DNA of 14,996 bases from the IMG/VR virus record IMGVR_UViG_2713896798_000009. One strand, written 5' to 3'. Position numbers and translations under genes: made by a program. Positions 12,350 through 12,728 of the stretch are shown piece after piece (position 1 is the first letter of the stretch; the number at the start of each line of letters is the position of its first letter). The notes beneath the pieces are model-generated. The model ran no database searches, had not been told where the DNA came from, and was given only the letters and a program-made list of their open reading frames with translations. Source of the stretch: a virus. Taxonomy: Duplodnaviria; Heunggongvirae; Uroviricota; Caudoviricetes.

Positions 12350-12446
12350 AGCTACCTCGATACTCTCGTTATCGTTGGTGGTTAGAAGCCCTGCGAGTGG
12401 TAACGACACTTGCGGGGCTTTGCATTTATGCACCTTGATAACCTCA

Positions 12447-12487
12447 AGGTGTGGCCCACTATATTCTTTAGGTGTGGCCCACGTCAA
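12447..12487 (-). promoter_or_regulatory. promoter of the minus-strand replication operon with two overlapping operator repeats
   Basis: Minus strand reads TTGACG (-35, plus 12482-12487), 18-bp spacer, TATAGT (-10, plus 12458-12463); 13-bp direct repeat aggtgtggcccac at 12447-12459 and 12470-12482, each containing the 9-bp palindrome GTGGCCCAC; strong hairpin 12388-12418 in the predicted 5' UTR. Confidence 0.5.
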
Positions 12488-12548
12488 GAGTTTTATTTGT
12501 GCTTTTTCTGTGTATACTGTCCCCCACCAATCCAACAGAGGAATAGAA

Positions 12549-12728
12549 ATGGCAACGGGTACAACAAACGCAAAATCACAAGCTCTAAAGGCTCGTGTAC
12601 CACACGAAATAGTAAACGACATGGAATTAGTGAAAGAATCAGGCGAAAGCACATCACAATTCATCATTGCGTCAATGCAAGGCGAGATCAAACGCCGCCA
12701 GCGCCGCAAGGCCAAAGAATCAGAATAA
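12549..12728 (+). CDS. small DNA-binding regulator, probable ribbon-helix-helix fold (59 aa)
   Basis: ATG at 12549 with AGAGGA RBS; beta-strand-like LKARVP followed by two helix-like segments and a basic C-terminus (RRQRRKAKESE); divergent from the replication operon promoter. Confidence 0.45.
   Translation: MATGTTNAKSQALKARVPHEIVNDMELVKESGESTSQFIIASMQGEIKRRQRRKAKESE

Follow-up and report, generated by a model that had tools for sequence, protein, structure and literature searches.

A candidate repressor/operator immunity cassette and a predicted cis-antisense RNA in a capsid-forming phage satellite

We analysed the divergent promoter region at positions 12385-12728 of a stretch of 14,996 nucleotides (nt) from the virus record IMGVR_UViG_2713896798_000009 (Caudoviricetes); the whole stretch is called the window below. 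The region belongs to a phage satellite, a capsid-forming phage-inducible chromosomal island (cf-PICI). It holds the promoter of the minus-strand early/replication operon and that of a plus-strand gene, ylcI, which encodes a protein of 59 amino acids (aa) from the YlcI/YnfO family. This region is probably a repressor/operator immunity cassette of the satellite, together with an antisense lock on icd, the first gene of the operon. The evidence is largely comparative: candidate operator boxes recur at the same positions in related loci, and their cores change together with the 59-aa protein.

Candidate operators and promoters

The elements of the region are as follows.

12487-12482 (-35, TTGACG) and 12463-12458 (-10, TATAGT), minus strand: operon promoter, 18-bp spacer, 10 of 12 positions as in the consensus
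12449-12459: box O1, GTGTGGCCCAC, exact copy; overlaps the last 2 nt of the operon -10 and covers the expected transcription start
12472-12482: box O2, GTGTGGCCCAC, exact copy; fills the spacer of the operon promoter and overlaps the -35 by 1 nt
12490-12518, plus strand: ylcI promoter, -10 TATACT at 12513-12518, putative weak A/T-rich -35 near 12490-12495
12517-12527: box O3, CTGTCCCCCAC, two core mismatches; overlaps the last 2 nt of the ylcI -10 plus +1; predicted autoregulation site
12549-12728, plus strand: ylcI, 59-aa YlcI/YnfO-family gene, ATG at 12549; predicted repressor

The minus-strand promoter is the best sigma-70 match within positions 12000-13800. It had been called near-consensus in an initial annotation made from the sequence alone, and it is both strong and conserved: in related loci TTGA is kept beside O2 and TATAGT or TACATT beside O1. 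The ylcI promoter stands back to back with it, and the 59-aa gene is indeed divergent from the operon, as had been claimed. The hexamer TATACT (TATAAT or TATTAT in some loci) is situated immediately 5' of O3 in almost all loci. Both promoters share the reading TATA(G/C)TG-N5-CAC.

The initial annotation described two copies of a 13-bp repeat, AGGTGTGGCCCAC, in the spacer and over the -10/+1 region, and took a 9-bp palindrome within it for the operator unit. The copies are at these places (12447-12459 and 12470-12482), with the similarity extending to 22 nt at 82% identity and a spacing of 23 bp. However, the third box, O3, was missed, and the palindrome is peculiar to the core of the window; the conserved unit is 11 bp long. 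The window contains exactly two copies of the 11-mer GTGTGGCCCAC, and such a pair 23 bp apart is only mildly improbable if judged on the window alone. Nor is the generic pattern GTGN5CAC over-represented there (6 observed against 3.9 expected). Further box-like matches at 12595-12605 (inside ylcI), near 13193-13204 and at 4713-4723 were judged to be due to chance.

The boxes are significant because the same three positions with element-specific cores recur across related loci. The comparative set was collected with the protein alignment as the query, one genome per species; 68 loci were fetched, of which about 55, from about 30 genera, were usable. O2 (GTG-N5-CAC) lies at -77 from the regulator ATG in nearly all loci and abuts the -35 (TTGAN+G) of the minus-strand promoter. 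O1, at -100/-102 or -112, lies across the start site and either overlaps the -10 or comes after it; it is 22-35 bp away from O2, in direct or inverted orientation. O3 (CTG-N5-CAC) lies at -32 in nearly all loci, and its core matches that of O1 and O2. Within one element the cores match; from one element to the next they vary, forming 22 classes. Judged by this pattern, the predicted recognition unit is an 11-bp GTG-N5-CAC box with an asymmetric element-specific core.

A perfect O3 (CTGTGGCCCAC) is present in loci L002-L004, and relatives from Dryocola, Pseudocitrobacter and Enterobacter have a perfect O3. MBT-5, an E. coli locus with the same protein type, has the O3 of the window with its two core mismatches. 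The mismatched O3 in both examined E. coli cassettes of this type may reflect weakened autorepression in the E. coli lineage.

The repeats had been interpreted as operators placed to shut the operon off. Their positions fit this interpretation, as they would occlude the -35 and spacer and the -10/+1 region, and the comparison described below ties the box sequence to the 59-aa protein.

The 59-aa YlcI/YnfO protein

The 59-aa protein matches the NCBIfam model NF041551 (YlcI/YnfO) over residues 9-50 with 63.7 bits at a cutoff of 30, and the identical gene is assigned to this family in RefSeq. It also matches phrog_949, which has no function assigned. The family is small, with 85 clusters at 50% identity among 1.84 billion representatives; 52 homologues with 57-95% identity were found across Enterobacterales. 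No Pfam family was matched at E <= 0.1, and none of the curated models of ribbon-helix-helix (RHH) proteins (RHH_1, CopG, Arc and similar) was among the matches. There was no sequence match in PDB, and a Foldseek search against PDB was empty. A tblastn search against 50,697 phage records produced no match, so the subfamily was not detected in deposited phage genomes. A functional study was not found in the literature on YlcI/YnfO/DUF3950, on RHH proteins in PICIs or on AlpA with a repressor/operator.

The AlphaFold2 model of the monomer (mean confidence score pLDDT 88.6) has an extended N-terminus followed by two helices. The predicted parts are a beta-strand at approximately residues 11-17 (QALKARV), helix A at 19-28, a GES turn at 32-34 and helix B at 35-58. 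The family alignment contains an alternating N-terminal stretch, the invariant R16-x-P18, the G-E-S turn, and an invariant basic stretch EIKRRQR in helix B. The protein has the characteristic parts of the RHH fold: a strand at the N-terminus, then two helices, the second of them preceded by a G-x-S/T/N turn. It models as an RHH (MetJ/Arc) DNA-binding protein. The RHH-like features noticed in the initial annotation are borne out by this beta-alpha-alpha model with its G-x-S-type turn.

Box cores co-vary with the 59-aa protein

Each core class pairs with one motif in the predicted beta-strand, the single exception being KIQARAP, which is found with two related cores. Examples of the pairs are listed here.

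ALKARVP or SLKSRVP: core TGGCC
KLEARVP: core TCAGC
MTTVRIP: core AAATA
QLNARFP: core AATCG
xQxSVRLP: core AACAC
RFDVRVP: core TCGGA
QIVSRVP: core CATGC
KLQARAP: core GA(C/T)TC

Co-variation was first measured as the minimum Hamming distance over all box orientations; this proved too lenient and gave way to explicit tables and a per-column analysis. In the latter, residue 14 differs in 94% of pairs from different classes and in 0% of pairs from the same class. The next-best tracker of the box class is residue 12, and R16 is invariant. An i, i+2, i+4 pattern is expected for the DNA-facing side of the ribbon in RHH proteins (Arc, MetJ, omega). Residues 12, 14 and 16 fit this pattern. No simple residue-to-base code emerged.

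No such correspondence exists for other genes of the islands. One AlpA cluster (at least 70% identity) is associated with six different cores, and single Icd clusters with two to three different cores each. The MTTVRIP class in turn is spread over three AlpA clusters, six Icd clusters and four Int clusters. AlpA, Icd and Int can be up to 94-98% identical in loci with different boxes. Within E. coli, four islands compared with the window form a natural factorial design.

JNEC-KY172, same tqsA site: Int 96%, AlpA 97%, Icd 96%, ORF106 95%, DUF4222 97%, primase 97%, ORF81 99% identical; YlcI of the cassette 68% identical to that of the window, with the motif KLQARAP; boxes CTGGATTCCAG / GTGGAATCCAC
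O157 AR-0427 (EcCIEDL933 type): primase 98%, Icd 92%, Orf58 98%, AlpA 64%, Int 76% identical; YlcI cassette and boxes as in JNEC-KY172
MBT-5: a RepA-type replicase replaces the primase; YlcI 97% identical to that of the window; boxes as in the window
OkiPb01678: Int and AlpA unrelated; YlcI of the O157 type; boxes of the O157 type

The swapped block extends from the hairpin described below to about codon 45 of the regulator, with conserved sequence flanking it on both sides. The late regions are unrelated between islands with common boxes. Taken together, these comparisons show that the box core co-varies with the 59-aa protein and with no other gene. The core idea of the initial annotation holds up and has strong comparative support. 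The E. coli island comparisons exclude AlpA, Icd, the primase and a host factor as readers of the boxes. The boxes were also considered as replication iterons read by the primase, which is 97% identical where the boxes differ, and as sites of a host factor, with two box types found inside E. coli; both candidates were rejected.

Several other observations concern the movement of the cassettes. The nucleotides of the EIKRRQR codons (12681-12705) are near-identical across genera even at synonymous sites and coincide with the right junction of the swapped cassette. The left junction is a conserved GTTGGTGGTYAGA that precedes the hairpin. Both may be recombination anchors. The tqsA island of JNEC-KY172 contains a second gene annotated as YlcI/YnfO (locus L071, 3412-3810), encoding 64 aa of very different sequence. 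On its 5' side there are a remnant of the icd start, a hairpin with a T-run similar to the stem-loops described below, and another inverted repeat (TGTGTAATGTGTATATACACATAAACACA). It appears that regulatory cassettes can be moved, and can be stacked, as complete units.

In the same island (locus L074, 8500-12300, compared with 1190-7600 of the window), the early region has 95-99% protein identity, whereas the late module is different and consists of capsid, decoration protein and TerS only. Since the early region is shared and the late region is not, one early/regulatory backbone serves both cf-PICI and classical PICI late modules.

A hairpin and a candidate antisense RNA

The initial annotation placed a stable hairpin (12388-12418) in the 5' untranslated region (UTR) of the operon. 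The location is correct and the hairpin is slightly larger (12385-12421), but as a structure of the operon mRNA it did not stand, because the comparison points to the plus strand. In 47 of 48 distinct sequences the plus-strand RNA forms the more stable hairpin, with mean energies of -23.3 kcal/mol (plus) against -17.6 kcal/mol (minus) and 115 against 20 G·U pairs. RNAalifold predicts an outer helix, a small stem-loop and a long hairpin in the 42-sequence alignment, with compensatory changes in 11 of 21 pairs, and the observed covariation was reached by none of 500 shuffles. Over the 42 loci, the plus strand can pair in 96.1% of the cells and the minus strand in 79.1% (154 against 4 G·U pairs). 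The 10 nt 3' of the stem contain on average 4.8 T on the plus strand and 1.5 on the other one. By these measures the hairpin structure is selected on the plus strand.

The simplest reading is that the hairpin is the terminator of a cis-antisense RNA fully complementary to the icd leader, Shine-Dalgarno box and AUG. The existence of this RNA and its 5' end are predictions from the following candidate elements.

12334-12342, plus strand: putative extended -10, TGgTATGAT (TATGAT at 12337-12342), inside icd codons 3-5
12349-12430, plus strand: candidate RNA of about 80 nt, antisense to the icd leader, Shine-Dalgarno box and start codon
12357-12375: stem-loop 1 of the candidate RNA, within an outer helix
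12385-12421: stem-loop 2, candidate terminator, followed by a U-rich tail

The fold of the 82 nt at 12349-12430 has an energy of -40.1 kcal/mol (z-score -6.5) on the plus strand, against -21.9 for the complement. The anti-Shine-Dalgarno sequence CCUC is situated within the loop of stem-loop 1 or just 5' of it. Of the 42 loci, 41 retain a hexamer TAnnnT, its distance from stem-loop 2 being constant at about 41-42 nt, and the icd residues under it vary between loci (H, S, R, D). There is no annotated plus-strand gene in the island upstream of the candidate RNA start.

No Rfam family was found at the gathering threshold over the window, and none was accepted at E <= 10 over positions 12100-13500, the C4 and isrK models included. 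These two models match some other Gram-negative PICIs (PMC10111431). One weak minus-strand hit, to the R1162 antisense family (16.7 bits, E = 6.8), was put down to chance.

AlpA and induction

AlpA is a known activator of Gram-negative PICIs (PMC6092414; bioRxiv 10.1101/2022.09.08.507074). Induction of the island EcCIEDL933 requires AlpA, and those Gram-negative PICIs that were tested have their alpA turned on by helper phages; whether a repressor exists was left open there (PMC6092414; bioRxiv 10.1101/2022.09.08.507074). In Pseudomonas aeruginosa, AlpA is a processive Q-like antiterminator: its binding element is in the promoter spacer, between -35 and -10, and it allows bypass of a terminator close by, at +26 or +54 (PMC7969949).

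In the window, alpA is encoded 500 bp away. In 33 of 35 loci with an alpA hit it is on the strand of the operon, upstream of it and convergent with the RHH gene, and it is placed elsewhere in two loci (L044, L045). Between the two genes there is an intrinsic terminator of the ylcI-orf58 transcription unit:

13052-13079, plus strand: -21.7 kcal/mol, followed by T7; on the minus strand -12.3 kcal/mol with a poor U tract

In the Xenorhabdus loci, the corresponding terminator is plainly unidirectional. Transcripts of alpA may pass the terminator at 13052-13079 on the minus strand. The label "induction switch", which the divergent module received in the initial annotation, is at present unproven.

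The stretch 12968-13079 contains a promoter-like sequence TTGCCC-17-TATCAT about 50 nt upstream of the strong plus-strand terminator and produces a weak hit to the Rfam family Atu_C8 (E = 0.05). The stretch is conserved in L071. It could be either a small plus-strand transcript or the 3' UTR of ylcI-orf58.

Proposed mechanism

Binding of the boxes by the RHH protein and the resulting repression are inferred from sequence comparison. The dimer would insert its N-terminal beta-ribbon into the major groove of the 11-bp GTG-N5-CAC boxes, with the variable residues 12 and 14 reading the core and the invariant R16 possibly contacting the conserved arms. In the quiescent island, a dimer on O1 and O2 would exclude RNA polymerase from the strong operon promoter and thus keep the satellite silent. 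Occupancy of O3, over the -10/+1 region of ylcI, would provide negative autoregulation and limit the synthesis of the repressor. The antisense RNA would start near the icd start codon, end at the hairpin and probably block translation of the toxic Icd-like protein from leaky transcripts; strong operon transcription would run into the promoter of this RNA and relieve the antisense lock. As for induction, our preferred guess is that AlpA-dependent transcription from the alpA promoter reads through the weak minus-strand face of the terminator, crosses ylcI in the antisense direction and enters the operon. This proposal is based on three considerations: AlpA of P. aeruginosa is a processive antiterminator, the terminator is strong only on the plus strand, and alpA lies upstream on the strand of the operon.

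Several points weigh against this model. The boxes are within about 150 bp of the codons of residues 12-14, so part of the co-variation could come from physical linkage inside a cassette that recombines. Distances between boxes are not constant (22-26 or 35 bp), and hence there is no obvious helical phasing for cooperative binding. The candidate promoter of the antisense RNA sits in coding sequence and is not provable by conservation, the U tract after the stem is interrupted, and the candidate RNA has no Rfam match. Finally, overexpression of alpA alone is published to induce the related EcCIEDL933, so the repressor is no absolute lock.

Alternative explanations

The boxes could be operators for another factor, encoded elsewhere in the island or by a helper phage, the co-variation with the 59-aa protein being caused by linkage. 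The short distance between the boxes and the N-terminal codons, which move as one cassette, is compatible with this, and the adjoining Icd-like protein is labelled "transcriptional repressor" in PHROGs. However, three identical cores per element that differ between elements in one host species require a matched factor encoded by the element. In near-isogenic islands, where Int, AlpA, Icd, ORF106, DUF4222, primase and ORF81 are 95-99% identical, only the RHH protein changes with the boxes; the late regions are unrelated between islands sharing boxes; and the residues that track the boxes best, 12 and 14, are those expected to face DNA in an RHH ribbon. We consider this explanation unlikely. A second possibility is that the 59-aa protein does bind the boxes, but as an activator or architectural factor that acts on the spacer of the operon promoter in the MerR manner. 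Some RHH proteins, such as AmrZ, can activate transcription, and the 18-bp spacer with its internal site is slightly over-long. On the other hand, most characterised RHH regulators are repressors, the core promoter already has 10 of 12 consensus positions, the spacer in other loci is 17-18 bp and not 19-20, and O1 and O3 each overlap a -10 and +1 in the classical geometry of occlusion. Such a role is quite improbable. Still more improbable is that the boxes are binding elements of AlpA and the hairpin a leader terminator bypassed by AlpA-modified RNA polymerase, as in P. aeruginosa. The attraction of this scheme is that AlpA is a known activator (PMC6092414) with documented spacer binding and terminator bypass (PMC7969949), that the AlpA of the window belongs to PF05930, and that one box is in the spacer with the hairpin about 30 nt past the expected start. 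It is contradicted by JNEC-KY172, whose AlpA is 97% identical while the boxes are different, by the six cores within one AlpA cluster, by the third box at the divergent promoter, and by the hairpin, which is selected and U-tailed on the plus strand and followed by 1-2 U in the next 10 nt on the minus strand, so that it is no terminator on the minus strand. An arrangement of the P. aeruginosa alpB type, with an AlpA element in the spacer and a bypassed terminator, was accordingly rejected on the co-variation and strand data.

The part of the model that concerns the antisense RNA has a more serious competitor. The plus-strand hairpin might only be an insulator that terminates stray antisense transcription, or it might belong to the leader of a longer ylcI mRNA. 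The assignment of the antisense promoter is indirect and the U tract is interrupted, which favours this explanation. However, as no plus-strand gene is annotated upstream, a plus-strand transcript must start nearby; the second conserved stem-loop, which has compensatory changes, presents the anti-Shine-Dalgarno sequence; and the hexamer TAnnnT stands at a fixed distance. A stem-loop, an anti-Shine-Dalgarno sequence and such a hexamer are the usual anatomy of a cis-antisense regulator. We therefore favour the cis-antisense RNA, while an insulator or leader element retains a minor but appreciable probability.

The element and its other genes

Over the 1 kb around the divergent promoters, the window shares 99.9% identity with the E. 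coli FORC_028 chromosome, and sequence related to this region is present in 1,739 of 5,426 complete E. coli genomes. In FORC_028, the near-identical island of about 15 kb is situated between the halves of tqsA. According to RefSeq, its early genes are int, a small AlpA-type helix-turn-helix gene, an icd-like gene and genes for DUF4222, a D5-type primase, SSB and PerC; its late genes encode the major capsid protein, protease, portal, connectors, HNH, TerS and TerL. By definition, cf-PICIs are 10-18 kb long and carry int, alpA, a replication module and their own capsid, protease, portal, connector, HNH, TerS and TerL genes, without tail and lysis genes (bioRxiv 10.1101/2025.02.11.637232; the class is also described in bioRxiv 10.1101/2022.09.08.507074). 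Since the size and gene set of the FORC_028 island fit this definition, we identify the element of the window as a cf-PICI that has inserted into tqsA. Its early/replication operon on the minus strand consists of icd, orf106, the DUF4222 gene and the primase gene. The genes around the divergent promoters are as follows.

9713-11545, minus strand: D5-type primase
11527-11826, minus strand: DUF4222 gene
11833-12153, minus strand: orf106
12146-12349, minus strand: icd-like, 67 aa, first gene of the operon, host cell division inhibitor Icd-like (RefSeq; NCBIfam NF033153, 69.6 bits)
12786-12962, plus strand: open reading frame of 58 aa (orf58), apparently co-transcribed with ylcI; varies between islands; phrog_21027, no function assigned
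13226-13414, minus strand: alpA, Phage_AlpA family (PF05930, E = 1.2e-16)
13779-14996, minus strand: int

Icd-type proteins are cell division inhibitors in phage P1. For the Icd-like protein of the window, the label in NCBI is cell division inhibitor, whereas PHROGs label it "transcriptional repressor" (phrog_6196, phrog_1743). The 58-aa protein keeps the motif ERFAPCxFxL..YS despite its variation between islands, and the gene is probably the variable one adjoining alpA that is mentioned as being of unknown function in bioRxiv 10.1101/2025.02.11.637232. A PerC-family protein is encoded at 8175-8567 (PF06069, E = 3.6e-43), with an additional weak match to the ANR family; for a PerC-like protein of a related PICI, repression of the locus of enterocyte effacement has been reported (PMC11773190).

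Relation to known systems and significance

A close parallel in logic is the immI region of phage P22, with the RHH repressors Arc and Mnt, the divergent promoters Pant and Pmnt and the antisense RNA sar. There is no detectable sequence similarity between the two systems. Arc binds one 21-bp operator as a tetramer, whereas the window has three separate 11-bp boxes 22-45 bp apart, and immI controls an antirepressor, whereas the satellite cassette would control an icd-like gene and a replication operon. The Omega repressor of the inc18 plasmids (pSM19035) recognises repeats by a similar logic, but these are contiguous heptads of one specificity, in contrast to the spaced 11-bp boxes of YlcI/YnfO with at least 22 classes. 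In plasmid pMV158, a repressor, CopG, is likewise combined with an antisense RNA, RNAII; however, copG is the first gene of the operon that it represses, from one 13-bp pseudo-palindrome, and the predicted repressor of the window is divergent and has three boxes.

The Stl/Rpr repressors of Gram-positive PICIs (SaPIs) are likewise found where the integrase side and the replication/packaging operon diverge, and the two presumably share the role of silencing the island as long as no helper is present. But Stl is a large helix-turn-helix protein inactivated by binding of a helper protein, unlike the 59-aa RHH protein, and in the Gram-negative islands AlpA is additionally required (PMC6092414). An icd-type gene that heads an operon and is held down by a small RNA is reminiscent of immI of P1/P7 (c4 RNA - icd - ant) and of the CI RNA of P4. 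Unlike the candidate cis-antisense RNA, c4 and CI arise by processing of the sense transcript and act on target sites located elsewhere, and the Rfam models C4 and isrK did not match here.

RHH repressor/operator modules with antisense RNAs are already known as a type, while the YlcI/YnfO family is uncharacterised and no repressor has been described in Gram-negative PICIs; the papers on cf-PICIs label the genes adjoining alpA as of "unknown function". It is tempting to go further and regard the YlcI/YnfO RHH protein with its three boxes as the master repressor that had been missing for Gram-negative PICIs and cf-PICIs, and as their immunity determinant, with more than 20 exchangeable specificities, induction by convergent AlpA-dependent (possibly antiterminated) antisense read-through from the alpA promoter, and a cis-antisense RNA as the second lock on the toxic Icd-like protein. 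In this full form the proposal is tentative, and we would not yet call it probable.

The analysis provides the YlcI/YnfO family (phrog_949) with a concrete, testable predicted function and a defined candidate operator, and points to an unannotated antisense RNA. The 22 natural pairs of protein and DNA specificity would be useful for studies of RHH recognition and as a source of orthogonal repressors. The swaps of cassettes between near-identical islands suggest immunity types of satellites, like the immunity regions of lambdoid phages. Such types could explain which satellites coexist or cross-repress, and this would be relevant to PICI-based delivery vehicles.

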